NCBI GenBank assembly: GCA_047516145.1
Contig: JAKZVH010000359.1
Location: 1-41,277, forward strand
Direction: 5' to 3'
DNA: 41,277 bases
From: Gammaproteobacteria bacterium
GTDB taxonomy: Bacteria; Pseudomonadota; Gammaproteobacteria; Steroidobacterales; Rariloculaceae
Notes under the pieces: generated by a model
What the model saw: only the letters and a program-made list of their open reading frames with translations
What the model was told of the DNA's origin: nothing
The model's database searches: none
Program-made: the position numbers and the translations under genes
In this document: one piece after another, positions 193-22,787 of the stretch
How the letters are laid out: each line of letters begins with the position of its first letter
How positions within the stretch are numbered: the first letter of the stretch is position 1

Positions 193-1578
193 TTATCCGT
201 CGTCGACGATATCCTGAGCCGCTCGCTCACCCGACTCCATGGCGCCCTCCATGCCGCGGTTGGCCAGACTCAGGTGTTCGCCGCAGAACCGAATCAGACC
301 ATGCGCAGCGCCCATGGCGGCGGCGAAGCGGGTGATCTGTCGGGGGCGAAAATAGGCCCACGCCCCGCGGGCGCAAGGGTCGCTTCCCCAACTTTTTCGC
401 CCGATGAATTCCAGCTGACCGTGCGCGGCCGGGCGTGCTGCCTCGATCTCCTGGATCACCCGGGCGCCGGCTTCCCGAGGGGCCAGCGCGTCAAGTAGTG
501 CCGCGTTACGGCCCATTACCCAGGCCGAAAATCCGGTGACCTCCGACGGATCCTGGCCGTTGCGGACGGCGGCCATCATTCCCGCGGTACTGTCGGTGAA
601 CAGGCTGGGAGCGAATCCATCCGCTTCCCAGAACCGGGATTTATGGGCGAAGTAGAGTTGGGTCATGGGCTGCGCCGGCAGGTTCGCCACAGCCTCCCGC
701 TGTTCGCCACTCAAGGGTGGGTCGATGCCGATCCCTCGCAATACCCCGAAGGGCAGGGCGCATACTGCGTGAGCCGCCCGGTAGACGGTACCGTCGTCAC
801 AGCGCACCGTTACGCGACGCCTGTCATCCTCGATTCCCGTCACCACTCGGCGAAAGTGCACGGGCTGATCGAGTGCCGCGGCCATGGCCTCCGGGACTCG
901 CTGCACGCCGTTCTCCACGGTATATCCGGCAGCGCCCGCAATAGAGGCCGAACGGGACTTGGAAGAGGCCGCTTGCGCCTTCGAGAAAGCCGCCCGGAAA
1001 AGCATCAGTAGCGCCGATACTCCGCGCGCGTCTTCGCCGTAGCTGACGTTGATGCCGTAGCCGACCCGGATCGCCGCATCGCTGAGTCCGAGCCCCTTCA
1101 TCCATTCGTACATGGAGACATCGAGCCTGGCGTTGGCCGGGTCGAGCCAGTCCCGCGGACTCTCGAGGCGGTTTTCCCGAGCAGTCAACACTCGGCTGTA
1201 CCTCCAGGGCAGCAACGCCTTGTCCCTCGCCGGGAACGGATTCGCGGGATGATCGGCCCACTCCGACTGGCGGATGATGGCGCCGTCGAGTACCAGGTCC
1301 TGTTCGCGGAAGAATTCCAGCGCGCGCGTGATATCGACGAGACCGATACCGAACCGCGATGCCGCGGCGATGACCCGCCGGTAGCCTGCGCCGATGAAAG
1401 TCCCGCCGGCTTCCATTTGCCCGCCGAGTTGCCGCATGGATCGCACGCGCCCGCCGACGCGCTCCCGGGCTTCGATCACCTGGACGTCGACGCCGGCGTC
1501 CTGGAGGTGCAAGGCGGCGCTGAGGCCCGCGAGACCCGCGCCGATCACCACTGCTTCGCAGCGATGTACCGGCGTCAC
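193..1578 (-). CDS. FAD-dependent flavin amine oxidase-family oxidoreductase (monoamine-oxidase-like). It is the last gene of the heme chain and a candidate functional CgoX/HemY replacement.
   Basis: ORF 193..1938 was trimmed. The first ~120 residues are Arg/Gly/Pro junk overlapping hemH. The GTG at 1578-1576 overlaps the hemH TGA (GTGA). The dinucleotide-binding motif VVIGAGLAGLSAALHL..VIEARERVGGR and the C-terminal FCGEHLS..GMEGAMESGERAA are typical of the Pfam Amino_oxidase family. Confidence 0.8.
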   Translation of the reverse strand: MTPVHRCEAVVIGAGLAGLSAALHLQDAGVDVQVIEARERVGGRVRSMRQLGGQMEAGGTFIGAGYRRVIAAASRFGIGLVDITRALEFFREQDLVLDGAIIRQSEWADHPANPFPARDKALLPWRYSRVLTARENRLESPRDWLDPANARLDVSMYEWMKGLGLSDAAIRVGYGINVSYGEDARGVSALLMLFRAAFSKAQAASSKSRSASIAGAAGYTVENGVQRVPEAMAAALDQPVHFRRVVTGIEDDRRRVTVRCDDGTVYRAAHAVCALPFGVLRGIGIDPPLSGEQREAVANLPAQPMTQLYFAHKSRFWEADGFAPSLFTDSTAGMMAAVRNGQDPSEVTGFSAWVMGRNAALLDALAPREAGARVIQEIEAARPAAHGQLEFIGRKSWGSDPCARGAWAYFRPRQITRFAAAMGAAHGLIRFCGEHLSLANRGMEGAMESGERAAQDIVDDG

Positions 1579-2642
1579 GTCAACTCCGCACCGCAGAGCG
1601 CACCGGGTGGCTCGCCGGGTCGGCCGGAAAGGCAGCAATCGGCCGGGCAGACATCGTGGCTGGGCCCGCGCCCGCCCAAAGCCGGGCGGTCTGGGCCAGC
1701 CGTCATCCGCTCGACGATCAACTCCCGCACCATGCCCACGTAGGCGGGATGGGCGCCCACCGTACCCGCGCGCACCATGTCGAGGCCCAACTCGGCGGCC
1801 TTGTCCGCCGCTTCCACGTCCAGATCCAGGACGACCTCCATGTGATCGCAGACGAATCCGATGGGGGCGACCACGACATCCGTATGTCTCGCCCCGCGCG
1901 TGGCCTCCAGCGCTTCGCTGATGTCCGGCCCGAGCCACGGCTCACCGTAGGAAGCGTTTTGGCTCTGGTAGACCAAGATCCAGGCCCCGGCACCCGCCGC
2001 CTCGGCGGACAGCGCGCACGCTTCCCGCAGCTGGGCCCGGTAGTCGCAGCGTTCCGCCATGGACAGCGGCAGGCTGTGGGCTGTGAACAGCAAGGCCGGT
2101 GGCGCTCCACCGGCGGGCAGCCGCGCGAACGCCTCGCGCAGCCGGTCGCTCACGGCCGCGATGAAGCCGGGATGGTTGTAGCCGACCCGCAGCTTGTCGA
2201 TTTGCGGTGCGCCTTCAAGCCCCTGCACCGCGGTGTAGAGATCTTCGCGGTATTTCCGGCAACCGCTGTATGAACTGAACGTGCTGGTGACGTAGGCGAT
2301 GGCTCGGCGGATCCCGTCGGCGGCCATCCGTTCCAGCGTATCTCCGAGCAGGGGGTGCCAGTTGCGGTTACCCCAGTAGACTGGTATCCGCGGTCCGGCG
2401 GCAGCCAATTCGCCCTCAAGCGCCCCGACGAACTCCCGGGTGTGGGCGTTGATCGGGCTGACACCCCCAAAGCGATGGTAGCGCTGGGCGATGCGCGCCT
2501 TGACCGGCGGCGGCACACGCAGCCCCGCCAGCACGTTGTCGAGAAACGGCATGACGTCGTCCGTGCCCTCGGGGCCGCCGAAAGAGACTACCAGCACGGC
2601 GTCGTACTTCCGGGCTTCGTTGTCGTAGAGCTCAGCCGGCAT
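1575..2642 (-). CDS. hemH: Ferrochelatase. By context probably a coproporphyrin ferrochelatase (CpfC), with a Cys-rich C-terminal tail.
   Basis: N-terminal YDAVLVVSFGGPEG, plus FTAHSLP and PIGFVCDHMEV, are ferrochelatase hallmarks. The last 30 residues carry four Cys (VCPADCCLSGRPGEPPGALC) and there is an internal SGCRKYRE. This resembles [2Fe-2S]-type microbial ferrochelatases. Confidence 0.9.
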   Translation of the reverse strand: MPAELYDNEARKYDAVLVVSFGGPEGTDDVMPFLDNVLAGLRVPPPVKARIAQRYHRFGGVSPINAHTREFVGALEGELAAAGPRIPVYWGNRNWHPLLGDTLERMAADGIRRAIAYVTSTFSSYSGCRKYREDLYTAVQGLEGAPQIDKLRVGYNHPGFIAAVSDRLREAFARLPAGGAPPALLFTAHSLPLSMAERCDYRAQLREACALSAEAAGAGAWILVYQSQNASYGEPWLGPDISEALEATRGARHTDVVVAPIGFVCDHMEVVLDLDVEAADKAAELGLDMVRAGTVGAHPAYVGMVRELIVERMTAGPDRPALGGRGPSHDVCPADCCLSGRPGEPPGALCGAELT

Positions 2643-3366
2643 CGGCGATCCGGCTCTGCCACACTGTCCGTCCGACGAAGAACGGTCCCAGGCTGTCCAG
2701 AAACTGCGAAGTCTGCTCGGTCTTGCGCATCTCCTGCACCACCGCCGAGAGGGGGAACAGATTTGGACCCAGCAGCCCGATCACGAAGTCGTTGTCGTGC
2801 TTGTCCAGACCGTGGCAGGCCAGGCGGATATCCGCCGCGAGCCCGGCGGCGCCGTAGCGCCTGCCAATGGAGCCATGCTCGGCGAGAATCTGGCGCTGCT
2901 TGGCTTGCGGCAGCACGTAAAAGCTCTTGGAGCGCTGCAGCGGGTACCACACCGCCCAGGTATGGACCGGATTGAGAATCTTGGAGCGGGGCTTCTCGAA
3001 CAGCGTATCCTCCAGATCCGGCTCGTAACCGATGGTGTACGTGCGCCCGAGCATGTCGAATTCGCCCTTGTGGGTCATGTCCGCAAAGGGCGGACCGTTG
3101 AACGCATTCCGGAGTGCCTGGGCGAAGAACGCCGGATCCTCGGCCATCGCGATGACGCCAATGCCTGTGGGGTCATTGGCGTCAAGGTATAACGCCCCCT
3201 CGACTCCCGCTTCCTCGAGGGCCTGTCCCGCGGCAGCGACGTCGCCACAACCGTTGAACGCGGTGAATTTCATGAACAGCCGGCGGTTCAGCGAGATCGG
3301 CCGGCCTTCGCGCGTGCCTTTCTCGCTGAGATCCACCGACACCGGGTCTTGTCTTGATTGCGTCAC
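2632..3366 (-). CDS. hemQ: Chlorite dismutase-family protein, likely coproheme decarboxylase (HemQ/ChdC)
   Basis: 244 aa. WAVWYPLQRSKSFYVLP..RQILAEHGSIGRRY..PFFVGR aligns by eye with actinobacterial HemQ (YPFVRSYEWYLLP..MLADHGMAARGY..PFFTGR), including the proximal His. The gene sits between hemE and hemH. Its GTG start overlaps the hemE stop. Confidence 0.7.
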   Translation of the reverse strand: MTQSRQDPVSVDLSEKGTREGRPISLNRRLFMKFTAFNGCGDVAAAGQALEEAGVEGALYLDANDPTGIGVIAMAEDPAFFAQALRNAFNGPPFADMTHKGEFDMLGRTYTIGYEPDLEDTLFEKPRSKILNPVHTWAVWYPLQRSKSFYVLPQAKQRQILAEHGSIGRRYGAAGLAADIRLACHGLDKHDNDFVIGLLGPNLFPLSAVVQEMRKTEQTSQFLDSLGPFFVGRTVWQSRIADAG

Positions 3367-4385
3367 GTTGCTTGCTCCTCGTGCACGGCGTCGACCAGCG
3401 CGGTCACGCTTTCCAGCGGGGTACTCGGGAGAATGCCGTGGCCCAGATTCACGATATGGCCCTCGGGCTTCACCCGTTGTAACAGGTTCGCCGCCGCCGC
3501 CCGGGTCGGCACGGCGCCGCCCAACAGAATGGCGGGGTCGATATTGCCCTGCACCGCTCGGCCTGGATAGCGTGACTGCAGGGCCGCGATGTCCACTCGC
3601 CAGTCCACAGCCAGCACCTCGGCGGGCAGGCTCGCGTACGCCTCAAGCAGGTGCGGCGCGTTCTGCAGAAACATGATCCTCGGTACGCCGGCCTCACCGA
3701 CCGCATGGAGCAGTTTGGTCAGATGAGGCCGAATGAGCCGTTCCCAATCCGGTAGCGAGAGGACGCCCGCCCAGGAATCGAAGATCTGTACGGCGTCGGC
3801 GCCTGCCCGCGCCTGGCTGATCAGGTATGTTGCCATGGCATCGGCAAGTTTTCCGAGCAGGTTCTGAAGAACGTCCGGCTGTGCCGCCGCGAAGGCGCGC
3901 AACGTGGGGAAGTCCCTCACGCCGCGTCCCTCCACGAGGTAGGCGGCCAGGGTCCACGGTGCACCGCAGAATCCCAGCAACGCGGTTTCCTCGGGGAGCA
4001 CGGCGCGGGTCTGCCTGAGCGCGGCGACGACCTCGGGTCCGAGCCGGTCCGGGTCCGGCGGCGTCAGCGCGTCCACGCCCGCCTTGTCGCGAATCGGGTT
4101 CTCCACCACCGGGCCGGGGTCAAAGTCGAACTTCACGCCCAACGCCGGCAGCGGGCTCATGATGTCGGCGAATACGATGGCAGCGTCCAGAGGGAATCGC
4201 GCCAACGGCATCAGGGTCACTCTGGATGCAAGTTCGGCGGACTGTGCCACCGCCTTGAAGGGATAGGATCGGCGCAACTCGCGGTACTCGGGCAGGTAGC
4301 GCCCGGCCTGGCGCATGATCCAGAGCGGGCGCCGGTTGACGGCCTCGCCGCGAATCGCCTTCAGCAGCAGCCTTTCCCCGGTCAC
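3363..4385 (-). CDS. hemE: Uroporphyrinogen decarboxylase
   Basis: The URO-D signature PLWIMRQAGRYLPEYRELR lies near the N-terminus. Length is 340 aa. Confidence 0.95.
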   Translation of the reverse strand: MTGERLLLKAIRGEAVNRRPLWIMRQAGRYLPEYRELRRSYPFKAVAQSAELASRVTLMPLARFPLDAAIVFADIMSPLPALGVKFDFDPGPVVENPIRDKAGVDALTPPDPDRLGPEVVAALRQTRAVLPEETALLGFCGAPWTLAAYLVEGRGVRDFPTLRAFAAAQPDVLQNLLGKLADAMATYLISQARAGADAVQIFDSWAGVLSLPDWERLIRPHLTKLLHAVGEAGVPRIMFLQNAPHLLEAYASLPAEVLAVDWRVDIAALQSRYPGRAVQGNIDPAILLGGAVPTRAAAANLLQRVKPEGHIVNLGHGILPSTPLESVTALVDAVHEEQAT

Positions 4386-5101
4386 TGTACCCGCTCCGCT
4401 TCGCTGGTAAACCGGTAGCCGACGCCGCGCACGGTATGAAAGTGCTCGGGGGCCTCCGGGTTGCGCTCGAATCGCTTGCGCAGGCGCACGATGAAATTGT
4501 CAATCGTTCGAGTAGAGGGATACACCTCGTAACCCCACACTTTATCGAGGATGTCCTCTCGCGGGACGATGGCGCCATCGTGTTCCGCGAGCACCTTCAT
4601 GATCATGGCTTCCTTGTGGGTCAGCGAGTGCTCGATACCGTCCCATCCCAGGGCGTGATACGTCAGAAAATCGATCTCGTTACCGCTGAAATGCAGCGTG
4701 GACCTGGCCCGTGCATACCAGTGACTGCGGCGCAGGATGGCCGCGACCCGCAGCAACAACTCCTTGAGATGGAACGGTTTGGCCAGGTAGTCGTCGCCGC
4801 CGGCTTCAAGACCGCGAATGCGATCCTCGGGGCCTCCCTTCACCGTGAGGAACATCACCGGCGTGTGCATTGCGTTGCGGCGCAGTTCCTCGCACGTCTT
4901 CAGCCCATCCATTCTTGGCATCATCACGTCCAGAAGAATCAGGTCGAAGCGGCTTGCCAGCGCCTTGCGAAGGCCTTCGGCGCCGTCGTTGGCCACTTCC
5001 GCGGCGTAGCCTTCGGCTTCCAATATCTCGCGGATGCCGTCCGCCAGGTGAACCTCATCGTCGACCACCAGTATCCGGGCCGGATGGATCGCTGCGCTCA
5101 C
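4382..5101 (-). CDS. OmpR/PhoB-family response regulator
   Basis: Receiver domain: ILVVDDE..DLILLDVMMPRMDG..KP. C-terminal winged helix: TRTIDNFIVRLRKRF..TVRGVGYRF. The GTG start overlaps the kinase stop, and its own stop overlaps the hemE GTG start. Confidence 0.92.
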   Translation of the reverse strand: MSAAIHPARILVVDDEVHLADGIREILEAEGYAAEVANDGAEGLRKALASRFDLILLDVMMPRMDGLKTCEELRRNAMHTPVMFLTVKGGPEDRIRGLEAGGDDYLAKPFHLKELLLRVAAILRRSHWYARARSTLHFSGNEIDFLTYHALGWDGIEHSLTHKEAMIMKVLAEHDGAIVPREDILDKVWGYEVYPSTRTIDNFIVRLRKRFERNPEAPEHFHTVRGVGYRFTSEAERVQ

Positions 5102-6186
5102 CGCTGCGCTCCGGGGACCGGCCAGTCCACGGTGACCGTCGCGCCCGTGCCCGGCCCGTCGCTGGCAGCGCTGACCCGGGCTCCCGAGAGCTCCGCAAGA
5201 CCGCGAACGAGGTACAACCCCAGCCCGGTACCCTGTGTGGAACGGCGCATCTCGTCCCCGAGCCGATAGAATTTTTCGAAGATCATGGAGGCGTCCTCGG
5301 GCGCAAAGCCACTGCCGTCATCGCGCACCGTGATACGAACGAACCGGCCGGCCGGTTCAGCGCCTATCCACACGCTTTGACCCTGCCCGGAGACACAGGC
5401 CTTGACGGCGTTGTCGAGCAGGTTGCGCAGAACCGTTTCGATCGCGAAGGGGTCTGCATCCACCCGCAAATCGCCGCTAACGCTGACTTTGATGTCCACG
5501 CCGTGCCCGTGGGCCGCCTCCTGGTGATGGGCCAGGCTAGCCTCGATAACGCCGGCCAATTCGAGCGTACCCCGCTTCAATTCGATGCGGCCTTCCTCGA
5601 GCCGCGTGGTCTCCAGCAGGTTTTCCACCATCCGCAACAACCGCTCGCCATCCTCCAGCATCCGCTGGCCCAGGCGTTGCGTGTGCGGATCGTCGGTTCG
5701 TCTGATCAGGGATTCGGCCGCGAGCCTGATGCTGGCCAACGGGCTCTTCAATTCGTGCGAGACGGCGGCGAGAAAGTTCTGTTGCCGCTTTCTGAGCTGC
5801 GCATCGTGCCGGATCGTGCGCGTCAGCACGGTCATGCCGCCCAGCAGCACCAGCAGGAAGAATCCGCCTTCCCAGGTATAGCGATTGATGCGCGAATCGG
5901 CGTCGTCGGCGAGGGCCTGCAGGGACTCCGGCCGAACGGCCGCCGTGCCCCGATCCGCGTCGATCTCGATGTGGGGCAATAGCTCCGGCAGTTGGAGCGC
6001 CGCCTGCGCGAACGCCGCGGTGACTGCCAGCGCGTCGGCTTCATAGAGCGCCGCGATGCGATCCCGATTGTCCCGCGCCAGGCTGCGCTGATCGGCGACC
6101 CACCAGGCAGTCTGGGCCGTGGATATCGCCAGCAGGGCGAGAAAACCGAACTGCAGCGCCATGGTTGGATTGCGTTTCAGCGTCAT
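5098..6186 (-). CDS. Sensor histidine kinase with two TM helices and a ~95-aa extracytoplasmic loop; no HAMP or PAS domain recognised
   Basis: H-box FLAAVSHELKSPLASI, N-box LRNLLDNAVKA, and G-boxes DDGSGF and GTGLGLYLV are present. ORF 5098..6447 was trimmed to the ATG at 6186 (MTLKRNPTMALQFGFLALLAIS). The upstream part overlaps hemL, and this ATG forms an ATGA overlap with the hemL stop. Confidence 0.9.
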   Translation of the reverse strand: MTLKRNPTMALQFGFLALLAISTAQTAWWVADQRSLARDNRDRIAALYEADALAVTAAFAQAALQLPELLPHIEIDADRGTAAVRPESLQALADDADSRINRYTWEGGFFLLVLLGGMTVLTRTIRHDAQLRKRQQNFLAAVSHELKSPLASIRLAAESLIRRTDDPHTQRLGQRMLEDGERLLRMVENLLETTRLEEGRIELKRGTLELAGVIEASLAHHQEAAHGHGVDIKVSVSGDLRVDADPFAIETVLRNLLDNAVKACVSGQGQSVWIGAEPAGRFVRITVRDDGSGFAPEDASMIFEKFYRLGDEMRRSTQGTGLGLYLVRGLAELSGARVSAASDGPGTGATVTVDWPVPGAQR

Positions 6187-7538
6187 GACTCGCTCTCCAT
6201 CGATTCCTCGGTTGCCGGGTGGTCGGGTTGGTTTGCCCCGGCCACGGTTTCGAGCACTTCCCGCAGTGTCGTGGCGAAGCGGTCGATGTGCCCGGTATCG
6301 TGGGCCAGCGACAGGAATCCCACCTCGAACGCTGACGGCGCCAGCGCGATGCCGCGTTCCATAAGGCCGTGAAAAACCTGCCGGTAGATTTGTGCGCCCC
6401 GCGGGTGGACCGCCGCGGCGGACCGCGGCGCTTCGGTCGATCCCCACGCGATCCAGAAGATCGAGCCGATGCGCACCAGCGCGGCCGGGACCGAGGCGGC
6501 GCGCAGCACTTCGTCGAGGCGCTGCTCCAGGTATTTTCCGAGACGCTCCAGGGTCTGCCAGCCGTGGCGGCGCTGCAGATACTTGAGCGTCGTCAGCCCC
6601 GCCGTCATGGCCACCGGATTGCCGGACAAGGTGCCGGCCTGGTACACGCCTCCGGTGGGCGCCAGGTGCTGCATCGTCTCTCGCGGGCCGCCGAACGCGC
6701 CCACGGGCATGCCGCCCCCGATGACCTTGCCGAAGGTGACCAGGTCAGGCTGCACGTCGTAGTGGGCCGCCGCGCCCCCGGGTCCCAGCCGGAAACCCGA
6801 AATGACCTCGTCGAAGATCAAGAGTGCCCCGTGGCGCGTGCATCGCTCGCGCAGCAATTTCAGAAACTCCGGGCGTTGCAGGAGCAGGCCGTTATTCGCG
6901 GGTACGGGTTCGATGATGACCGCGGCGATGCGGTCGCCGTCGCGATCGAAGAGTGCTGCCACGGCGTCGTCGTCGTCGAGCGGCAGGACGCGGGTCAGCG
7001 CCGCATGCGGCTCCGGGATACCCAGCGACGACGGGGTGCCGAAGGTTGCCAGCCCGGAGCCCGCCGCCACCAGCAGGTCATCCACGTGGCCGTGATAGCA
7101 GCCGGAGAACTTGACGATGAGTTCGCGTTCTGTGGCGCCCCGGGCCAGGCGCACGGCACTCATCACGGCCTCGGTTCCGGAGGATACGAAGCGCACCTGC
7201 TCGATGCCGGGGTAGCAGGCCACCACGGTCTCGGCCAGCTCGATTTCCACTGCGGACGGCGCGCCGAAGGAGGTACCGCGGCCAACGGCGCCCTTAACGG
7301 CAGCCACGACCGATGGGTGGGCATGGCCCAGGATCAGCGGGCCCCACGACCCGACGAAGTCCAGGTAGCGATTGCCGTCCTCGTCGACGACTTCGGCGCC
7401 ACGGCCCTCGCGGATGACCTTCGGGGTTCCGCCCACGCCGCGAAACGCCCGCACGGGCGAACTCACGCCGCCGGGCAGGACCTCGAGCGCCCGGTCGAAC
7501 CATGCAATCGATCGCGGGTTCCCGCGGGCGGGGCTCAT
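6183..7538 (-). CDS. hemL: Glutamate-1-semialdehyde 2,1-aminomutase
   Basis: Class-III aminotransferase fold with SWGPLILGHAHP, FDEVISGFR and TFGKVIGGGMPVGAFGG (PLP-lysine region). Confidence 0.95.
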   Translation of the reverse strand: MSPARGNPRSIAWFDRALEVLPGGVSSPVRAFRGVGGTPKVIREGRGAEVVDEDGNRYLDFVGSWGPLILGHAHPSVVAAVKGAVGRGTSFGAPSAVEIELAETVVACYPGIEQVRFVSSGTEAVMSAVRLARGATERELIVKFSGCYHGHVDDLLVAAGSGLATFGTPSSLGIPEPHAALTRVLPLDDDDAVAALFDRDGDRIAAVIIEPVPANNGLLLQRPEFLKLLRERCTRHGALLIFDEVISGFRLGPGGAAAHYDVQPDLVTFGKVIGGGMPVGAFGGPRETMQHLAPTGGVYQAGTLSGNPVAMTAGLTTLKYLQRRHGWQTLERLGKYLEQRLDEVLRAASVPAALVRIGSIFWIAWGSTEAPRSAAAVHPRGAQIYRQVFHGLMERGIALAPSAFEVGFLSLAHDTGHIDRFATTLREVLETVAGANQPDHPATEESMESES

Positions 7539-8539
7539 AGCCAGCCCCCCTCGATTGCATCCCGCGCGTGATAGGTAATGATCTGATCGGCGCCGGCGCG
7601 GCGGATTGCCAACAGGTTCTCGCGAACCACCTGGGCTTCATCCAACCAGCCGTTGGCCGCCGCTGCCTTGACCGCGGCGTATTCGCCGGAGACATTGTAG
7701 GCGGCCAGCGGAAGCCGGCTGGCGCCGCGCACGGCCCGAATGACGTCGAGATAGGCGAGGGCGGGTTTCACCATGAGCATGTCCGCGCCCTCGCGCTCAT
7801 CAAGCTCCGCTTCGCGCAGCGCCTCGCGGACGTTGCGCGGGTCCATCTGGTAGCTGCGCCGATCCCCGAATGCCGGTGCGGAGTCCGCCGCGTCGCGAAA
7901 CGGCCCGTAGTAGGCGGAGGCGTACTTGACGGCGTAGGCGAGGAGCAGGACATTGTCGTGGCCGGCCGCATCGAGGGCGTCGCGGATGGCGGCGACGCGT
8001 CCGTCCATCATGTCCGAGGGTGCGACGACATCGGCGCCAGCCTCGGCGTGGCTCAATGCGGTCCGCACCAGCGGTACGAGGGAAGCGTCATTGACTACGT
8101 GGCTGTTGTCGACGATGCCACAGTGGCCATGATCGGTGTAGGCGCAGAGGCATACGTCGGTCATTACCACGAGATCGTCGCCGAATTCGGCCTTCAGCCG
8201 GCCGACCGCGCGTTGCACACTGCCGTCCGCGGCCCACGCCGCCTGACCGTCGGCCGTCTTGTGCCCGGCTTCGTCGGAATGGCCGAAGAGGAGAACCGAT
8301 CGAATTCCCAGATCCAGGTCGCCCGCCACGCGGCTGACCAGGTTGTCGAGACCGAGTTCGGCGATGCCCGGCAGCGACGGGATGGGTCGCTCGGCCCTTC
8401 GTGTTCCAAGCACGAAGTGGGGCACGATGAACTGTGACGGTGAGATCCACGTCTCCGCCGCCAGATCCCGGATGACCTGGTTCCGGCGCAGACGTCGCGG
8501 ACGTATGCGCTTGGGAGTGGTCACTCTCGTGTCGTTCAT
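7535..8539 (-). CDS. hemB: Porphobilinogen synthase (ALA dehydratase), Zn-type
   Basis: Cys-rich metal site DVCLCAYTDHGHCG, PSDMMDGRV, and the active-site Lys region MVKPALAYLD. Confidence 0.95.
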   Translation of the reverse strand: MNDTRVTTPKRIRPRRLRRNQVIRDLAAETWISPSQFIVPHFVLGTRRAERPIPSLPGIAELGLDNLVSRVAGDLDLGIRSVLLFGHSDEAGHKTADGQAAWAADGSVQRAVGRLKAEFGDDLVVMTDVCLCAYTDHGHCGIVDNSHVVNDASLVPLVRTALSHAEAGADVVAPSDMMDGRVAAIRDALDAAGHDNVLLLAYAVKYASAYYGPFRDAADSAPAFGDRRSYQMDPRNVREALREAELDEREGADMLMVKPALAYLDVIRAVRGASRLPLAAYNVSGEYAAVKAAAANGWLDEAQVVRENLLAIRRAGADQIITYHARDAIEGGWL

Positions 8540-9324
8540 TGCATGATCTCCAACAGCCCTTCCAGGCTGGGTTGCGGCGCCTCCGCGGTTACGGTCAAGC
8601 CGGCGGCCCGCGCCGCGCGGCTGGTGGAAGGGCCGATGCTAAGTATTTCCGCCGCCGTGTCGAATTCAATCCTGTTCATCAGGCCCGTCACGGCCGACGG
8701 GCTTGCCAGGAGGATTTTATCCGCACGGAGTTCCGAGAGCGCCTGTTTTCGGGTCGGCGGCGCCGTTGGCACCGTGCGGTAAACGTTGATGCGCAGGCAC
8801 ACGCCCCCGGCGCGCCCCAATGTTTCCTCCAGGATCGGCCCGGCATTCTCAGCGACCGCGATCAATATCCGGGGGGGCTTTTGCCGTGACCCCGATTCCG
8901 CGTCGAGGCGCGCCGCCAGCGCCTGGGCCAGGGATGCCGCGGTGCCATCGGGGGCCACCAGGTCCACCCGGCCGGGCAGCCCGCGGGCTGCGTCGGCTGT
9001 CGCGGGTCCGACCGCGGCGATCAGAAGATCCGGACGTCTTTCAGCGGCAGCGCGATCCGATTCCGACGCGGAAATCCACGCTCGGAGCGCGTCGGCACCG
9101 CGCCGGGACGTCAACACAAGCCAATCGGTCGCCGGCAGCGCTGCCGCCATTCGAGACCGGGCTGCCGGATCGCGAATGGGCTGGCATTCAATGCACGGCA
9201 TCATCAGCGGTACGGCGCCTGCATTCGCCAGCCGCGACGCCCAGGGCGCGCAGTCCTCGGCGGCTCGGGTGACCAGGACCCGTTGTCCAATGAGCCCGCT
9301 CACGGCGGCTTCAGCCCGATCCAT
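8536..9324 (-). CDS. hemD: Uroporphyrinogen-III synthase
   Basis: HEM4-like size (~255-262 aa), GQRVLVTR start of the fold, and the position between hemC and hemB. The longest ORF starts at 9324 (25-nt overlap with hemC). A GTG at 9303-9301 would give the same GTGA overlap seen at the other junctions and may be the real start. Confidence 0.8.
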   Translation of the reverse strand: MDRAEAAVSGLIGQRVLVTRAAEDCAPWASRLANAGAVPLMMPCIECQPIRDPAARSRMAAALPATDWLVLTSRRGADALRAWISASESDRAAAERRPDLLIAAVGPATADAARGLPGRVDLVAPDGTAASLAQALAARLDAESGSRQKPPRILIAVAENAGPILEETLGRAGGVCLRINVYRTVPTAPPTRKQALSELRADKILLASPSAVTGLMNRIEFDTAAEILSIGPSTSRAARAAGLTVTAEAPQPSLEGLLEIMQ

Positions 9325-10220
9325 GCGGACTCCACCAGCGCGTCGAGGTCGGTTTCGCGCGCCGTTGCCTCAACAACCCTGCCCTCATGCTCAAGCCAGG
9401 CGATGAGCCGATAGGTTCCGGCCGATGGTCGGTCCGCCGTGCACCAGGCGCCGAATGCCGTGTCGCAGCCGCCCTCCACCCGGGCCAGCAATGCGCGCTC
9501 GGCTTGAACCGCCTGGCGGGTGGCGTTGTCGTCAAGGGCTTCAAGCGCCGCCCGAATTCGGGTATCCGATCGTCGGCACTGGATCGCCAGCGCGCCCTGT
9601 GACGGCGCCGGCACAAAGTTCTCCGGAGACAAACGCCGGAGCACGAATTCATCGGTCACGGGATCGGCGACGCCGTCCAGCGGACTTTGTCGCAATCTCT
9701 CGATCCCCGCGGCGGCGAGCACCACACCGTCCAGATCGCCGCGCAAGCGGTTGATGCGCGTGGGCACATTACCGCGGATGGGTACCACCGCGACGTCCGG
9801 CCGCAGGTGCCTGATCCAGGCCTGGCGCCGCGCGGAGGCCGTGCCCACTTTGGCTCCGTCGACGATGGGCAGCCCGTGACTCGGTTCGGCTGCCGCCGCC
9901 TTGTTCGTCACGAGTACGTCTGCTGGATCAATCCGCGCGGGCACCGCCGCGATCGTCAGTTCCGGCGGTGAACCCGTGGGAAGATCCTTGTAGGAGTGCA
10001 CGGCGATGTCCACGTGTGCGTCGATCAGCGCTTGCTCGATCTCCCGCACGAAGACGCCGTGCGGTCCGATCGCGCTGAAGGATGTCGCGGGGGATCGGTC
10101 CCCGGCGGTCGTGATGATAGTGATCGACGTTTCGTGCCCGAGCCTGGCGAGTTCCCCGGCGATACCAGCGGTTTGCGTGCGCGCCAGATGCGATCCGCGC
10201 GTTCCCAGCCGGAGCTTCAT
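9300..10220 (-). CDS. hemC: Hydroxymethylbilane synthase (porphobilinogen deaminase)
   Basis: N-terminal KLRLGTRGSHLARTQT, with SYKDLP and IRGNVPTRI motifs. Confidence 0.95.
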   Translation of the reverse strand: MKLRLGTRGSHLARTQTAGIAGELARLGHETSITIITTAGDRSPATSFSAIGPHGVFVREIEQALIDAHVDIAVHSYKDLPTGSPPELTIAAVPARIDPADVLVTNKAAAAEPSHGLPIVDGAKVGTASARRQAWIRHLRPDVAVVPIRGNVPTRINRLRGDLDGVVLAAAGIERLRQSPLDGVADPVTDEFVLRRLSPENFVPAPSQGALAIQCRRSDTRIRAALEALDDNATRQAVQAERALLARVEGGCDTAFGAWCTADRPSAGTYRLIAWLEHEGRVVEATARETDLDALVESAWIGLKPP

Positions 10221-11629
10221 CGGTTTGCCCCCTGGACGCCGTCCGCGCCCTTCGCTGCGCCGGAGAGATCGTTGCGCCCCGTCCCGCGAACGGCATCGCG
10301 TCCGTGTGGGGCGCGGTCGAGCGCCCGGCGCAGTTCCTCGGCGAACTCCGCGTCGAGCCCCTGGAGAAAGGCGTCCAGCGATCCGTCGGGCCCGTGGTGC
10401 AGAAGGCCTCTCAGCCCCAGTGTCGGGATATGCGCGAAGCGCCGCGCCAGGACCTCGGCCCAGGTTTCGATGGCTTCCCGCTCGGCCTCTCCGAGTCCCT
10501 TCAAATCTTTCTTGAGCAATCGCCGCACACCTTCCCGGGCGGTATGCCGGTAGCGGTTCTGCAGAGCGCCGAACAGCGGGCCGTAGACTCGCTCTGCGAA
10601 CCGGTCCCGAAGCCGGGGCAATGCTTCGTCCACGAGTTCGCGCGCCTGGGCGGTTTCAAGTAGTCGCGCCGCGCGGTTGCCCTGGGCTACGCGGACGATC
10701 TCGTCCATGCCCATGCGATGCAGGCCGAGCTTCTCGCAGGCGCGGCTGTCGATATTCTCGGGGACGGCCATGTCGATCAGGACGGGTGCCTCACCGGAAG
10801 GCGTCTTCGCGGCAATCCGTTCGAGTACCGATTCCGTCAGCAGCGGTTCGGGCGCGCCGGCCGAGCTGAGCACGGCTTCCACGGCCGGGGGATCGCGCAG
10901 AAAGTCGGCCAGCGCCACAGCCTCGGCGGAGTATGCGTCCGCGGCAGCCCGGGCCTTGGCTACCGTTCGATTCACGAAGATCAGCGGCGTACCGGATTTC
11001 GCCAACGACCGCGCCGCCCTCTCCGTCATGGCCGAGACACCCACCAGGGCGACGGCGCCGGGGGTGCGCTTGAGCCGCTCGCGCAGCCGCGCCACGGCGA
11101 CCTCCGCCAAAGACACGCGCCCGTGCCCCAGGCGCGTCGCACCGCGCACCCGCGCCGCGATGATCAGGGTTTCGTCGAAGAGCAGTTCCAATCGCGGTCC
11201 GCTGAGCCCCAGGGCGATCGCGCGATCGCGGCAGTCGCGGACCTGACCGACGATTTCCACCTCGCCGACCGCGGCGGAATCCAGTCCGGCGGCGACCAGA
11301 AACAAGTGCTCGCAGGCCCCCTCGCCCTGCCACGCCTTGAGCGCGCGCTGGGCTTCGCCGGGGCCCGGTGCCTGGCCGGTGAGCAGTTCGTATGCCTGGG
11401 GCCGAAGGTCGGTGTGGCGACGGTCACCCGGAACCGCGTCCGGGGCCCGCGCGAAGATGAGTTCGACGCGGTTGCAGGTATCCAGGTAGGCGAGTTCCGA
11501 CAGACCGGCTTGGTGGGCGAAGTCCTGCAGGCGTCGGTCGCGCGCCGCCTTCGGCAAGGCGAAGCGAGCCAGGGCTTCGCTGCCGTCCTGGCGCCACGAA
11601 ATGCCGACGATGCCGAGTTCTTCCAACAC
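10217..11629 (-). CDS. hemA: Glutamyl-tRNA reductase
   Basis: Catalytic-Cys motif LDTCNRVELIF, a central Rossmann segment VALVGVSAMTERAA, and a C-terminal dimerisation helix region. The start is a GTG with no purine-rich SD upstream. Confidence 0.93.
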   Translation of the reverse strand: MLEELGIVGISWRQDGSEALARFALPKAARDRRLQDFAHQAGLSELAYLDTCNRVELIFARAPDAVPGDRRHTDLRPQAYELLTGQAPGPGEAQRALKAWQGEGACEHLFLVAAGLDSAAVGEVEIVGQVRDCRDRAIALGLSGPRLELLFDETLIIAARVRGATRLGHGRVSLAEVAVARLRERLKRTPGAVALVGVSAMTERAARSLAKSGTPLIFVNRTVAKARAAADAYSAEAVALADFLRDPPAVEAVLSSAGAPEPLLTESVLERIAAKTPSGEAPVLIDMAVPENIDSRACEKLGLHRMGMDEIVRVAQGNRAARLLETAQARELVDEALPRLRDRFAERVYGPLFGALQNRYRHTAREGVRRLLKKDLKGLGEAEREAIETWAEVLARRFAHIPTLGLRGLLHHGPDGSLDAFLQGLDAEFAEELRRALDRAPHGRDAVRGTGRNDLSGAAKGADGVQGANR

Positions 11630-11660
11630 GGGGGAAAGGGTAGGGATCGGTGGGGCGCGA

Positions 11661-11678
11661 TTGTCATCGGACTGTCAC
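11661..11678 (+). promoter_or_regulatory. Pho-box-like direct repeat (TTGTCAT-cgga-CTGTCAC, 11-bp period) in the hemA/MBL divergent region
   Basis: Read directly from the sequence. It lies 32-49 nt upstream of the hemA GTG. This architecture is typical of OmpR/PhoB-family binding sites. The function is inferred only. Confidence 0.3.
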
Positions 11679-11841: not shown

Positions 11842-12705
11842 ATGAATAAACAGCTTATCGTAATGCTCGCGGGTACGCTGGCGCTGCCAGTGACGCAATC
11901 CGCCCTGGCCCAGGACGAACCGTTTCGAGAGATCGTCAACATCGCCGGCGATCTCTATCGGGCCACGAACAATGGCCACCACACCGCTTTTCTGGTGACG
12001 TCCGAGGGCATCATCCTCACCGATCCGATCGGGACCGACTTCGCGACCTGGCTCAAGGCGGAGCTGGAAGAGCGGTTCGGAGTGCCCGTGCGCTACGTGC
12101 TCTACAGCCACTACCATGATGACCACGCCTCGGGAGGAGCCGTTTTCGACGACACGGCCGAGTTCATCGGCCACGACAATATGCCCATTAACCTGGCACG
12201 GGAGGAGGGCAATGAAATCTTCGCCGAGGTCCGCCCGCCGGACCGCACGTATTCCGGCAGCACCAGCGTGACCCTCGGCGGCAAGACCGTGGAGATGATC
12301 TACGCGCTTCCGAGCCACAGCGATGACTCCTCGATCATCCGTTTCCCCGACGAGCGCACCATATTCGCGGTGGACTTTGTCAACGTCCGTCGCGTGCCGT
12401 TCCAAACGATGGGCGGGGGCGACATTGCCACCTGGATCGCGGCCAACCACCATCTCCAGTCGACGGTGGACTACGACATCGTCGCCCCGGGTCACGGGCC
12501 GATCGGGACCAAGGCGGACGTGGATGATTCGACCCGCTACCTGGAAGATCTGCTGGCGGCCGTGTCCGAAGCGGTGGACGCTGGAATGAGTCTGGAGGAG
12601 GCGCAGCAGAGCGTGCTCATGGAAGATTACAGCGATTACGCGCAATACGATGTCTGGCGGGCCATGAACGTGCAGGGCGTCTACGAGAGATTGACCGCGG
12701 AATAG
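11842..12705 (+). CDS. Secreted MBL-fold metallo-hydrolase
   Basis: ORF 11650..12705 was trimmed to the ATG at 11842, which is preceded by gaagggga. The signal peptide is MNKQLIVMLAGTLALPVTQSALA-QD. The HxHxDH motif is LYSHYHDDHASGG. Confidence 0.85.
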   Translation: MNKQLIVMLAGTLALPVTQSALAQDEPFREIVNIAGDLYRATNNGHHTAFLVTSEGIILTDPIGTDFATWLKAELEERFGVPVRYVLYSHYHDDHASGGAVFDDTAEFIGHDNMPINLAREEGNEIFAEVRPPDRTYSGSTSVTLGGKTVEMIYALPSHSDDSSIIRFPDERTIFAVDFVNVRRVPFQTMGGGDIATWIAANHHLQSTVDYDIVAPGHGPIGTKADVDDSTRYLEDLLAAVSEAVDAGMSLEEAQQSVLMEDYSDYAQYDVWRAMNVQGVYERLTAE

Positions 12706-13480: not shown

Positions 13481-14347
13481 ATGCGCATCTCGTCAATTGA
13501 AGGCAATCGCCAGTGGCTGGACGGCGGCGCGATGTTCGGCAACGCGCCGCGGGCGCTGTGGGCCCGATGGATGGAGCCGGACGAGCACAACCGCATTGAA
13601 TTGGCGTGCCGCGCGATCCTGGCCGAGGACGTGGAGGGCAAGCGAGTCCTGTTCGAAACCGGCATCGGCCATTTCTTCGAGCCGCGGCTTCGGACCCAGT
13701 ACGGCGTCTTTGAGGACGAGCATGTGCTGCTGCGTTCGCTGGAAGCGCGCGGCATTTCCCATGAGGACATCGACGCCGTGGTGCTCAGCCATCTGCACTT
13801 CGAGCATGCCGGGGGTCTACTGACGTCGTACTCGTCAGGTGAAGCGTTGCGGCTGCTCTTTCCCAACGCCCGCTACCTGGTGAGCGTCGACGCCTGGGCG
13901 CGCGCCAGGAATCCACATCCACGGGACCGGGCTTCGTTCATCCCGGAGCTCACGTCGTTGCTCGAATCGAGCGGCCGGCTGGAGCTTGTTGAGGGAGCGC
14001 ATTCGCCAAACCTGGGGATGGCGGTCCGGTTCGAGTTCAGTCACGGGCATACCCCGGGGCTGATGCTTGCGGAGATCGGCGGCGACGGAGGCGTGGTATT
14101 TTGCACGGACCCGATTCCCGCCCGGCCCTGGGTCCACCTCCCCATCGCCATGGGCTACGACCGCTACCCGGAGCAACTCGTCGACGAGAAGCGGGCATTC
14201 CTTGCGGACAAGCTGGCCCGCGGCGTGCGGCTGTTCTTTACTCACGATACCGAATGCGCGATGGCCCGGCCGGTACTGGACCAGCGCGGCCGCTTCACCA
14301 CCGCCGATGAGCGGCGATCGGTCGACGGGTTGGTTGTGGCCGCTTGA
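13481..14347 (+). CDS. Cytoplasmic MBL-fold metallo-hydrolase with a variant HxHxEH motif
   Basis: [13 protein letters not shown], with later SHGHTPG and FTHD motifs. No signal peptide. Confidence 0.8.
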
Positions 14348-16296: not shown

Positions 16297-17868
16297 TCAT
16301 GACGCGGCCTTCCGCAGCACCATTGGCCGCGCCGCACAAGCAAGGAGCGCATCGACATCGACTGCTTTCTCAACGCCATCGGCCAGTTTGTCGAGGGCCG
16401 TTTCGACGGCAGCGGTATAGTTCAGACCCGAACTGCCACCGGCTCCGGCCCGCCGCAGCCAGGTCCGGCGAAACTCGTCGTTGGCGAAGACGCCGTGCAA
16501 GTAGCTGCCTTCGATCAGCCCATCGGCGGAGCTTGCCCCGTCCGCCGCGCCTTCCAGATCGAATAATGGCCGGACACGGTCTTCGCCAGTGGTCCCGCCC
16601 ACGTGTATTTCGTAACCGGCCACCGGCAGCCCGGTGCGCACGCAGAGTCCTCGAACTGGACGCACGGTCTTGGACCCGGCCATCTCCGTGTGCACGTCAA
16701 GCAGGCCAAGTCCCTGCGCCTGGCCCGCCCGGCCATCGGCGCCACTCGCGTCGTTGATGCTGCGTCCGAGCAATTGGAAACCGCCGCAGAGCCCCAGCAC
16801 CCGTCCGCCCGCCCTTGCGTGGGAGAGAATATCGTGGTCCCAGCCCTGAGCCCGCAGAAACGCCAGATCGCCCAGCGTGGACTTGGTGCCGAACAGGATC
16901 ACGACATCGGCGTCGCGCGGCAGGGGGCGCCCGGGAGGCACCCAGCGAAAGTCGACCCCGGGTTCCAGCCGCAACGGATCGGCATCGTCGAAGTTGGCCA
17001 TCCGGGACAGCATGGGCGCCACGATCTTTAGCCGGAACCGTTCATCGGGTTTCTTCGTTCGGGCGTCGAGGCGACCGCCGTCGAGCACCACGGCATCCTC
17101 GGCGGGCAGGGCCGCGGCGCAGGCCAGCCAGGGAACGACGCCGAAGCAGGGCCAGCCGGTGCGCGACTCGATGGCGGTGACGCCCGCGTCAAACAATTTC
17201 GGGTCGCCGCGAAACTTGTTGACGACGAATCCCCGGATCAGTGCCGCGTCTTCCGCCGCCAGAACGACTTTCGTGCCGACCAGGCTGGCGATGACGCCGC
17301 CCTTGTCGATATCCCCCACCAGGCAGACGGGGACGCCGGCCTGCCGAGCGAATCCCATATTGGCGATGTCGCCCGCTCGCAGGTTGATTTCCGCCGGGCT
17401 GCCGGCTCCTTCCACGATGATGAGTTCATAGGCGTCGACGAGGCGCCCAAAGCTCTGTAGAACAGCGCCCATGCGCGCATCGCGCCGAGCCATGTAGTCC
17501 GTGGCGCTCATGCTGTCGACAACCTTGCCCCGCACGACCACCTGCGCCCGACGGTCGGACTCCGGTTTGAGCAATACCGGGTTGAAGTCCACTTCCGGTG
17601 CGAGCCCGGCCGCCTGGGCCTGCAGTGCCTGGGCGCGCCCGATCTCGCCGCCCGCGCAGGCAGCCGCATTGTTGGACATGTTCTGCGGCTTGAATGGCGC
17701 AACCGCCACGCCCCGACGGCGGGCGATGCGGCACAGCGCGGCGGCGATGAGCGACTTGCCGACATCGGAGCCGGTGCCTTGCACCATGAGCGCCCTTGCC
17801 GCATGTCTCACCCGCGATCGTCGCAAGGGCGCCGGCGGCCAAGTGCTGTCTGCCGGTGCCATACTCAT
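16297..17868 (-). CDS. cobQ: Cobyric acid synthase
   Basis: N-terminal MVQGTGSDVGKS, with a glutamine amidotransferase domain (GLCGGFQLLG nucleophile Cys, GYEIHVG). The ATG at 17868 forms an ATGA overlap with the btuD stop. An internal ATG at 17787 (MVQGTGS) is an alternative start. Confidence 0.92.
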   Translation of the reverse strand: MSMAPADSTWPPAPLRRSRVRHAARALMVQGTGSDVGKSLIAAALCRIARRRGVAVAPFKPQNMSNNAAACAGGEIGRAQALQAQAAGLAPEVDFNPVLLKPESDRRAQVVVRGKVVDSMSATDYMARRDARMGAVLQSFGRLVDAYELIIVEGAGSPAEINLRAGDIANMGFARQAGVPVCLVGDIDKGGVIASLVGTKVVLAAEDAALIRGFVVNKFRGDPKLFDAGVTAIESRTGWPCFGVVPWLACAAALPAEDAVVLDGGRLDARTKKPDERFRLKIVAPMLSRMANFDDADPLRLEPGVDFRWVPPGRPLPRDADVVILFGTKSTLGDLAFLRAQGWDHDILSHARAGGRVLGLCGGFQLLGRSINDASGADGRAGQAQGLGLLDVHTEMAGSKTVRPVRGLCVRTGLPVAGYEIHVGGTTGEDRVRPLFDLEGAADGASSADGLIEGSYLHGVFANDEFRRTWLRRAGAGGSSGLNYTAAVETALDKLADGVEKAVDVDALLACAARPMVLRKAAS

Positions 17869-20519: not shown

Positions 20520-20564
20520 CCGGGAGATTTTCCGGTTAGGCCGGCCATCCGATCGGTATTCGCG

Positions 20565-22412: not shown

Positions 22413-22589
22413 TGATCCCCTCCCGCACCCCTTGGGGTGCACTGTAATGACAACTCCGATCCCGCCAACCGCGACGGGCGCGGCGCTTCGTTTCATGTCG
22501 TTACAAGGAAGAAGGGGCACTTGGCCCGCAAATGCGGGCGCGGCGCTCTTTCCCGTTCGCGGACAATGTGCCCGGCCCACGAACGAACG

Positions 22590-22740: not shown

Positions 22741-22787
22741 CCTCACATCGGTGAGATGCGCGAACCCGGACAGCACCATCTACGGCT

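Follow-up and report, generated by a model that had tools for sequence, protein, structure and literature searches.

A putative HemKR-type two-component system encoded within the heme biosynthesis operon of Candidatus Rariloculaceae-type Gammaproteobacteria

The window, that is, the whole stretch of 41,277 nucleotides that was analyzed, carries an 11-gene operon on its minus strand, which was read directly from the open reading frames as hemA-hemC-hemD-hemB-hemL-HK-RR-hemE-hemQ-like-hemH-oxidase, with HK standing for a sensor histidine kinase and RR for a response regulator; all features given below are located on this strand. The operon opens at the GTG start codon of hemA (10217..11629), which encodes glutamyl-tRNA reductase (TIGR01035, E 3.2e-51) and is syntenic in all loci. 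It continues with hemC for porphobilinogen deaminase (9300..10220; Pfam Porphobil_deam, E 7.5e-64), hemD for uroporphyrinogen-III synthase (8536..9324; Pfam HEM4, E 3.3e-41), hemB for ALA dehydratase (7535..8539; Pfam ALAD, E 1.9e-136), and hemL for glutamate-1-semialdehyde aminomutase (6183..7538; Pfam Aminotran_3, E 3.4e-74), the top matches of which in a plasmid collection are named hemL. The HemK-like HK of 362 amino acids (5098..6186) and the HemR-like RR of 239 amino acids, a member of the OmpR/PhoB family (4382..5101), come next, followed by hemE for uroporphyrinogen decarboxylase (3363..4385; Pfam URO-D, E 9.2e-108). The location of the pair between hemL and hemE, as proposed in an earlier note on this DNA, is confirmed by the ORF coordinates and by the Pfam matches of the pair and its neighbours. 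The overlaps described there, ATGA between hemL and HK, GTGA between HK and RR, and GTGA between RR and hemE, are likewise all present; coupling on both sides is, however, not special to the pair, since every one of the ten operon junctions overlaps, with 4 nt shared at eight of them and 25 nt and 11 nt at the remaining two. Gaps of 10-120 nt are frequent at the HK/RR and RR/hemE junctions of relatives, so that tight coupling characterizes this genome but not the system as such.

Downstream of hemE, a divergent HemQ/ChdC-like protein with a chlorite-dismutase fold is encoded (2632..3366). The Pfam domain Chlor_dismutase is matched by its C-terminal half only (E 4.9e-16), and coproheme decarboxylases of the PDB match at an E value of about 1e-6. 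The operon is completed by hemH for ferrochelatase (1575..2642; Pfam Ferrochelatase, E 8.6e-74) and by a gene for a flavin amine-oxidase family protein (193..1578; Pfam Amino_oxidase, E 2.7e-59), whose GTG start at 1578 overlaps the hemH stop codon (GTGA). This oxidase is syntenic across the family and finds its best PDB matches, both in sequence and in fold, among monoamine and putrescine oxidases. No canonical HemY, HemF, HemN, or HemJ was found, and the flavoprotein encoded by the last gene is a candidate for a non-canonical coproporphyrinogen oxidase.

In the Pfam search, HisKA (residues 135-199) and HATPase_c (residues 245-357) are the only domains of the HK, with no match to HAMP or PAS. 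Two transmembrane helices, TM1 at about residues 10-31 and TM2 at about residues 105-126, are indicated by hydropathy and by the AlphaFold model (pLDDT 82.5), which contains long helices from residues 7 to 59 and from residues 86 to 163. A kinase with two transmembrane helices and devoid of HAMP and PAS domains, as had been described from the sequence, is borne out by these three lines of analysis, while the extracytoplasmic loop, previously put at about 95 amino acids, is corrected to about 73 amino acids (residues 33-105) by hydropathy and the model. In the latter, this periplasmic segment is confidently predicted as a helical hairpin topped by a small beta cap, and TM2 is continuous with the DHp helix bearing the phospho-accepting His144. 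The N, G1, F, and G2 boxes are all complete. The HK is a complete HisKA kinase whose sole input module consists of the two transmembrane helices and the 73-amino acid periplasmic hairpin.

The individual parts of the HK are conserved to different degrees among the orthologues. Highest values (0.84-0.88) are reached in TM2, the juxtamembrane segment, and the linker, and the lowest (0.52-0.60) in the loop. Most genera retain the periplasmic segment in full; two genera, which keep the operon and the DNA box upstream of hemA (see below), lack its central 33 residues. In the motif H144-E-L-K-S148, Ser148 is nearly invariant within the family, being replaced by Thr in one genus.

The RR is a canonical OmpR/PhoB-type regulator, composed of Response_reg and Trans_reg_C domains (Pfam), with Asp58 located within the sequence LLDVMMP. 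The PDB matches of its DNA-binding domain include 3T72; no HemR structure is found among the PDB matches. The 120 matches listed from protein searches with the HK and with a Bacteroidia RR were all close relatives. In a search of 50%-identity representatives with the RR, the top matches looked up were unnamed metagenomic proteins or belonged to Planctomycetota, Thermoanaerobaculaceae, or Myxococcota. No NCBIfam equivalog reaches its cut-off for the RR; among the NCBIfam models, the HK comes closest to PnpS, PhoR, and MtrB and the RR to MtrA and PhoB. Several identities were considered and rejected on these scores, namely PhoR (TIGR02966, 138.3 bits versus a cut-off of 334.2), PhoB (TIGR02154, 166.2 versus 296.2; NF053854, 180.2 versus 270), MtrB (136.8 versus 450), and MtrA (181.7 versus 300), as well as a CreBC or heavy-metal system, for which the NCBIfam scores are far under the cut-offs. 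With scores this far below the cut-offs, orthology of the pair to PhoR/PhoB is ruled out. In the databases, orthologues are listed under the names "PhoR", "PhoP", and "SenX3".

Upstream of hemA, 32 nt from its GTG start, the direct repeat TGACAgtccgaTGACA (TGACA-N6-TGACA) is located at 11662..11677. This element, referred to as the hem-box, occurs as a single exact copy in the 41-kb window and is identical to the published target of Leptospira HemR, the comparison being one of sequence presence (PMC11426443). The two halves of the repeat are set in an 11-bp register, as for OmpR/PhoB dimers arranged head to tail. The box is exact in front of hemA in all 17 family loci inspected, in the same place and orientation; among 28 further loci it is exact in 26 and has one mismatch in the remaining two, always on the hemA strand. 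The sequence flanking it has diverged among loci from about 65% GC to AT-rich, and an exact 10-base match would arise by chance within a 300-nt upstream region with a probability of about 3e-4 per genome. The distance from the box to the hemA start is 32-33 nt in 13 of 18 loci. A putative -10 hexamer, TACCCT (11637..11642), lies 19 nt 3' of the box and 7 nt before the hemA start, and a reading of the related loci reveals a TAnnnT hexamer 19-20 nt past the box in most of them. A consensus promoter and terminator scan gave nothing informative for the operon and reported nothing at TACCCT. The hemA GTG is not preceded by a Shine-Dalgarno-like purine run, and hemA would be leaderless, or nearly so, if the putative promoter were used. 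The hem leader matched no RNA element in Rfam.

The earlier note had called the regulon unknown, which can now be narrowed, as in five complete or near-complete genomes of the genus the box upstream of hemA is the sole conserved exact hem-box. The 3.0-Mb assembly contains three exact hem-boxes versus 2.35 expected, and the other exact boxes in this assembly and in the five congeners are no commoner than those of a reversed-pattern control. None of them is shared between genomes, and they are found within ORFs or next to unrelated genes (pirin, GntR, DUF3500). Likewise, a hem-box was not found at further genes of heme or iron metabolism, those for heme oxygenase or of the ExbBD type included.

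A full-length HK orthologue is present in 23 of the 24 genomes of the family and was found nowhere else in the order. The order hemA-C-D-B-L-HK-RR-E-Q-H-oxidase is maintained in 20 of 20 loci from nine genera, including that of a 1.2-Mb genome in which the HK is just 33% identical. In a species-representative collection, all 36 loci with a full-length HK orthologue have it inside hem operons; HK-RR is placed between hemL and hemE in 32 of these and in the arrangement hemA-HK-RR-hemE in the other four. The full-length HK orthologues found are those of Candidatus Rariloculaceae-type Gammaproteobacteria. Flanking by hemL and hemE, which the earlier note had proposed to check, is seen in the 20 syntenic loci and in the 32, and not in the four with hemA on one side; every full-length orthologue found resides in a hem operon and none in an unrelated context. 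Outside of the family, hemL-HK-RR pairs of Bacteroidota are reciprocal best hits of the present pair, with E values of 2e-68 for the RR (versus 6e-41 for the next match) and of 7e-34 for the HK (versus 5e-22). The signature QQ.NFL..[ST]HELKSP is common to this HK and those of Bacteroidota, whose motif HELKSP also includes Ser at the position of Ser148. In Bacteroidota the pair stays linked to hemL even with the rest of the operon located elsewhere; in one Bacteroidia genome with such a pair, hemA lies on a different contig and is preceded by an exact box at a distance of about 50 nt.

The earlier note had seen no precedent for a heme-related two-component system inside a biosynthetic operon. 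Such a precedent does exist, since the genes for HemKR of Leptospira (Hklep/Rrlep) occupy the position between hemL and hemE and are transcribed together with both; this layout was described for L. interrogans in 2008, and Bdellovibrio was mentioned there likewise (PMC2266917). Leptospira hemK and hemR mutants require hemin or ALA (PMC2266917). Phosphorylated HemR binds TGACA-N6-TGACA at hemA and activates the hemA operon, the same box mediates repression at hmuO, and ALA is an inducing signal, triggering the phosphatase activity of HemK (PMC11426443). HemKR also contributes to the adaptation to iron starvation (PMC11426443), while the phosphorylation of HemR is changed by ALA and not by iron, and an HK with a replaced loop still complemented the mutant (PMC2266917, PMC11426443).

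The Leptospira system (LB014/LB015 of L. interrogans; HemK/HemR of L. biflexa) consists of the same type of TM1-loop-TM2-only HisKA kinase and OmpR/PhoB-type RR as described here (PMC2266917, PMC11426443), with the same position between hemL and hemE and the same TGACA-N6-TGACA before hemA. There are also differences. The host belongs to the Gammaproteobacteria (Candidatus Rariloculaceae-type) instead of the Spirochaetota; the periplasmic segment is larger (about 73 amino acids), whereas the first 80 residues of the Leptospira kinase hold both transmembrane helices and the loop; the phospho-accepting residue is His144 versus H98; and four residues past it, Ser148 takes the place of Thr102. In the HemKR system, a conserved Thr or Asn at this position, Thr102 in HemK, is needed for the ALA-triggered phosphatase activity, and the switch to this activity may therefore work differently in the present HK. 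The last operon genes here are hemQ-like, hemH, and the monoamine-oxidase-like gene, instead of hemN, hemY, and hemH, and the Leptospira regulon includes hmuO and exbB1/exbD1, while no boxes were found at such genes here. No Leptospira replicon was among the hemL or hemA matches listed from the plasmid collection. Because Leptospira has the same layout, and because its published target sits before hemA here, the pair, judged by where its genes lie, by its architecture, and by the DNA motif in common, is probably a new member, from the Gammaproteobacteria, of the known HemKR-type heme-feedback system.

The PhoR/PhoB system of E. coli with its pho boxes likewise employs an OmpR/PhoB-family RR on tandem 11-bp repeats which overlap or replace the -35 element. 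PhoB activates via region 4 of sigma, and PhoB at pho boxes is the likely mechanistic model for activation at the hem-box, although the present HK lacks a PAS domain and both box sequence and regulon differ. The Gram-positive HssRS, ChrSA, and HrrSA are also two-component systems with short, membrane-embedded sensors that respond to heme. They control heme export and detoxification (hrtBA) and heme oxygenase and are not known to be encoded within a biosynthetic operon (PMC11426443, refs 21-22); no hrtBA-like genes adjoin the pair here, and none of the 25 NCBIfam matches listed for the HK or RR is named for any of the three systems. In the early heme operon hemAXCDBL of Bacillus subtilis, a regulatory membrane protein, HemX, is encoded as well. 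Its effect on HemA levels is post-translational, HemX being neither a kinase nor a transcription factor, and a HemX-like gene is absent from the present operon.

[quoted passage not shown] The earlier idea of an autoregulatory loop gains support from the placement of all orthologues found in hem operons and from the conserved repeat just upstream of hemA, and the best reading of the sequence would be that of an autoregulatory activator of its own operon. Dimers of the phosphorylated RR would bind the hem-box, centred at about -40 from a predicted transcription start at or near the hemA start codon, and would activate all 11 genes as PhoB does at a pho box; with hemK and hemR presumably part of the same transcript, positive autoregulation would therefore result. 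The signal, by analogy, would be ALA or a tetrapyrrole. As in Leptospira, the build-up of ALA or a downstream tetrapyrrole would shift the HK to its phosphatase mode and the operon would be turned off. Sensing would probably occur at the membrane/juxtamembrane region and not at the periplasmic loop, because conservation within the HK peaks in TM2, the juxtamembrane segment, and the linker and because two genera do without 33 loop residues.

The same components could also act with opposite sign, the phosphorylated RR occupying the -35 region and repressing the operon, with kinase activity rising upon an excess of heme or porphyrin. The proximal half-site (a/gTGACA) is a near-consensus -35 hexamer, so that occlusion would be conceivable, and in Leptospira the same box does mediate repression, at hmuO (PMC11426443). 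At the hemA operon, however, phosphorylated HemR of Leptospira is an activator, and the hemK and hemR mutants are auxotrophs for heme or ALA (PMC11426443, PMC2266917); moreover, the 19-20 nt between box and TAnnnT are long for a -35/-10 pair and would rather fit a class II activator site near -40. Negative autoregulation is, thus, considered distinctly unlikely. A signal other than ALA or a tetrapyrrole, such as iron, oxygen/redox, or envelope state perceived by the periplasmic hairpin, alternatives of the kind that the earlier note had offered, would be suggested by the confident modelling of the hairpin, by its full length in most genera, and by the part of Leptospira HemKR in iron-starvation adaptation (PMC11426443). 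Yet no part of the HK is less conserved than the loop, which can lose 33 residues with operon and box retained, and the Leptospira findings of HemR phosphorylation responding to ALA but not iron and of complementation by a loop-replaced HK (PMC2266917, PMC11426443) point in the same direction, making this input a rather weak contender.

That the pair is a sensor system of general purpose for envelope, phosphate, metal, or redox state (PhoR/PhoB-, MtrB/MtrA-, or CopS/CopR-like) which has come to lie in the hem operon by chance and regulates other genes, the TGACA repeat being no more than the promoter of hemA, is deemed highly improbable. The top NCBIfam matches (PnpS/PhoR/MtrB; MtrA/PhoB) and the database names "PhoR", "PhoP", and "SenX3" would agree with it, but the scores are far below the equivalog cut-offs and at least 36 orthologous pairs are all inside hem operons. 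Furthermore, the repeat is the exact, experimentally defined OmpR-family site of a regulator that is itself encoded in a hem operon (PMC11426443), a second conserved box is missing from the five complete genomes, and the Bacteroidota pair remains with hemL when the operon is split.

Beyond the HemKR-type reading, a more far-reaching and tentative one, which we regard as somewhat doubtful as a whole, would be as follows. The operon may represent a self-contained heme module that unites all enzymes with a dedicated sensor and regulator and one cis site; such modules may have spread among Leptospira, Bdellovibrio, Bacteroidota, and this gammaproteobacterial family by lateral transfer. Within it, two departures from the Leptospira model would be conceivable. 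The HK may sense a membrane-partitioned porphyrin via its ultra-conserved TM2 and juxtamembrane segment instead of a periplasmic ligand. In the terminal steps, the monoamine-oxidase-like flavoprotein may serve as a coproporphyrinogen oxidase of a kind not recognized before, acting alongside the very divergent HemQ. If true, a coproporphyrin-type route would operate in a proteobacterium without HemY, HemF, HemN, HemJ, and CgoN.

Summarizing, no new kind of system is revealed by the present locus. Experimental study of HemKR has so far been confined to Leptospira, and the fixation of the arrangement across an uncultured gammaproteobacterial family, with related pairs in Bacteroidota, suggests that HemKR is widespread and not a peculiarity of spirochaetes. 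In present annotation, such pairs are mislabelled as PhoR/PhoP-like. Natural variants in the family, with deletions in the loop, Ser instead of Thr at the phosphatase position, and a regulon confined to one operon, could be useful for locating the signal-sensing site. From this distribution it is suggested that HemKR may match heme synthesis to precursor levels in many bacteria.

The two-component pair lies in a series of 11 head-to-tail ORFs on the minus strand (193-11629), named from Pfam and NCBIfam matches. These are hemA (10217-11629), hemC (9300-10220), hemD (8536-9324), hemB (7535-8539), hemL (6183-7538), the histidine kinase (HK) gene (5098-6186), the gene of the OmpR/PhoB-type response regulator (RR; 4382-5101), hemE (3363-4385), a gene for a HemQ-like protein of the chlorite-dismutase fold (2632-3366), hemH (1575-2642), and a flavin amine oxidase gene (193-1578). 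ORF coordinates and Pfam matches place the pair between hemL and hemE, as the earlier note had it, and the overlaps described there, ATGA between hemL and HK and GTGA at both the HK/RR and the RR/hemE junction, were verified in the sequence. Since all junctions of the operon overlap, tight coupling characterizes this genome's whole operon rather than the pair; in relatives, gaps are frequent at the junctions around HK and RR. The source is a 3.0-Mb metagenome-assembled genome, 77% complete, whose relatives carry the label Candidatus Rariloculaceae, Gammaproteobacteria.

The notion that heme two-component systems are not encoded inside the biosynthetic operon has to be abandoned, because the Leptospira interrogans pair hklep/rrlep (LB014/LB015, now HemK/HemR) has been known since 2008 to reside between hemL and hemE, in the arrangement hemACDBL-[HK-RR]-ENYH (Louvel et al. 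2008, PMC2266917). That pair is transcribed together with hemL and hemE, L. biflexa mutants of it require hemin or ALA, and the same hem linkage was noted in Bdellovibrio (PMC2266917). Judged by gene position, architecture, and a DNA motif rather than by a tree, the pair of the window is a further system of this known HemKR kind, from an uncultured gammaproteobacterial family. The motif is the hem-box, the direct repeat TGACA-N6-TGACA published as the target of Leptospira HemR (PMC11426443).

Within the family, 23 of the 24 other genomes (nine genera) have a full-length kinase orthologue, and none does among 16 genomes sampled from 16 other families of the order, which gave generic catalytic-core matches only. 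The order hemA-C-D-B-L-HK-RR-E-Q-H-oxidase, Q being the HemQ-like gene, is identical in all 20 loci fetched around family orthologues and extends to a 1.2-Mb genome whose kinase shares 33% identity. In a species-representative collection, all loci with a full-length orthologue (36/36) sit within hem operons; thus none occupies the unrelated contexts that the earlier note had named as evidence against its reading. Its question whether such pairs are always flanked by hemL and hemE received a less uniform answer, as in four of these loci (L044, L051, L056, L059) HK-RR-hemE-hemQ-hemH-oxidase comes straight after hemA, and hemCDBL are located elsewhere.

The oxidase gene follows hemE-hemQ-hemH in those family loci that reach so far. 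Its product is not of the HemY type. In the PDB it matches putrescine, monoamine, and L-amino-acid oxidases best, both by sequence and by predicted fold (TM-scores of 0.73-0.78 against putrescine/monoamine oxidases); no protoporphyrinogen oxidase is among the best 50. In five (near-)complete family genomes, HemF, HemJ, HemN, and DUF1444/CgoN were not found, and HemY gave no match above cut-off. The protein is a candidate for a non-canonical coproporphyrinogen oxidase or, alternatively, for an oxidase of an amine such as ALA. The HemQ/ChdC-like protein is very divergent, with a Chlor_dismutase match on its C-terminal half only (Pfam, E 4.9e-16), 38-45 bits against NCBIfam HemQ models with cut-offs of 235-253, and E values of about 1e-6 against coproheme decarboxylases in the PDB. 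A HemQ-type terminal step would be unusual for Proteobacteria, which are reported to be largely without such enzymes (PMC5095920). Taken together, the amine-oxidase-like last gene, the missing enzymes, and the divergent HemQ mean that the terminal heme steps of the family merit separate attention.

Two metallo-beta-lactamase-fold proteins are encoded on the plus strand (11842-12705 and 13481-14347). The former, whose N-terminus resembles a signal peptide by eye, is encoded by a gene transcribed divergently from hemA, so that the 212-bp intergenic region with the hem-box is common to both genes. The region 16297-22759 (minus strand), some 5 kb away from the heme operon, resembles an operon for B12 uptake and salvage. 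Its cobalamin riboswitch (Rfam RF00174, 117.6 bits, 22580-22759, minus strand) is followed by genes for a TonB-dependent receptor, a FecCD-type permease, an ABC ATPase, and a CobQ-like cobyric acid synthase. For the receptor ORF, the TTG at 22673 that is listed as the start overlaps the riboswitch and is therefore probably too far upstream.

The kinase comprises 362 residues, and Pfam recognizes HisKA and HATPase_c alone, in agreement with the reported lack of HAMP and PAS domains. In the hydropathy profile TM1 spans about 10-31 and TM2 about 105-126, by which the outside segment, previously put at ~95 residues, is corrected to 73. An AlphaFold model (28 orthologues as input; mean pLDDT 82.5) contains a helix at 7-59, a short beta-hairpin cap, and one continuous helix at 86-163 that runs from the periplasm through TM2 directly into the DHp helix with His144, leaving no space for a HAMP domain. 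The best conserved segments, by family-wide majority-residue frequency, are the juxtamembrane region (0.84), TM2 (0.88), and the linker (0.88); values are lower in the catalytic domain (0.65) and the periplasmic segment (0.52-0.60), and 33 loop residues are absent in two genera. Together with the loop deletions, this pattern suggests that the signal is sensed in or near the membrane, which agrees with the finding that the Leptospira kinase loop is replaceable without losing complementation (PMC2266917). Ser148 occupies the position of Thr102 of Leptospira HemK, which is turned to phosphatase mode by ALA and needs T102 for this phosphatase activity (Imelio et al., PMC11426443). The regulator is canonical, with Asp58 present; neither protein reaches an NCBIfam equivalog cut-off.

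The sole exact hem-box of the window, TGACAgtccgaTGACA (11662-11677), is located on the hemA strand (minus), 32 nt ahead of the GTG start of hemA. The whole assembly contains three exact matches versus 2.35 expected. Each of the 17 other family loci with the hemA start in view has an exact box before hemA, whereas the sequence on either side has drifted from GC-rich to AT-rich. The box is exact in 26 of 28 loci of the species-representative collection, the other two having one mismatch, and the variant-order loci retain it 5' of hemA (exact in three, one mismatch in L051). In the genus, each of five (near-)complete genomes holds 2-5 exact boxes, versus 0-3 for a reversed control, and the box at hemA is the only one common to all five, the others being found in ORFs or beside unrelated genes. 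This predicts a regulon that consists of the operon itself, and exact-box searches of the window assembly and these five genomes gave no sign of hmuO or exbBD as targets.

The nearest regulators outside the family share 44-57% identity (representatives at 50% clustering); those named come from Planctomycetota, Thermoanaerobaculaceae, and Myxococcota. Three-gene hemL-HK-RR operons with no other hem genes adjoining occur in a Bacteroidia MAG (L069, 3980-6990) and in Phaeodactylibacter (L135, 6650-9684). These Bacteroidota proteins and the window pair are reciprocal best hits (regulators, E about 2e-68 versus about 1e-40 for the next hit; kinases, 7e-34 versus 5e-22), and the kinases have the TM1 'WW' and QQ.NFL..[ST]HELKSP motifs in common. 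In the Bacteroidia genome, hemA lies on a contig other than that of hemL-HK-RR and has an exact hem-box ~50 nt upstream, so that the link between regulator clade and box does not depend on operon position.

A TAnnnT hexamer is found 19-20 nt after the hem-box; in the window it is the putative -10 element TACCCT (11637-11642, minus strand), 7 nt before the hemA start codon. Box and start codon are a constant 32-33 nt apart in 13 of 18 loci (the window and the L013-L032 set), and no Shine-Dalgarno run was seen before the hemA start. These features suggest a leaderless or near-leaderless hemA mRNA beginning at the GTG. With this spacing, the box centre would lie near -40 and the transcript would start at or near the start codon, a geometry of class II activators, like that of PhoB at pho boxes. 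Since the proximal half-site is similar to a -35 element, it is also possible that the bound regulator represses the operon by occlusion. Under activation, the phosphorylated regulator would turn on all 11 genes of the operon, its own included, and accumulation of ALA or a tetrapyrrole would, by analogy with HemK, flip the kinase to phosphatase mode. Synteny and the conserved hem-box thus make the autoregulatory heme loop put forward in the earlier note likely for this operon, albeit not unprecedented in view of Leptospira HemKR.
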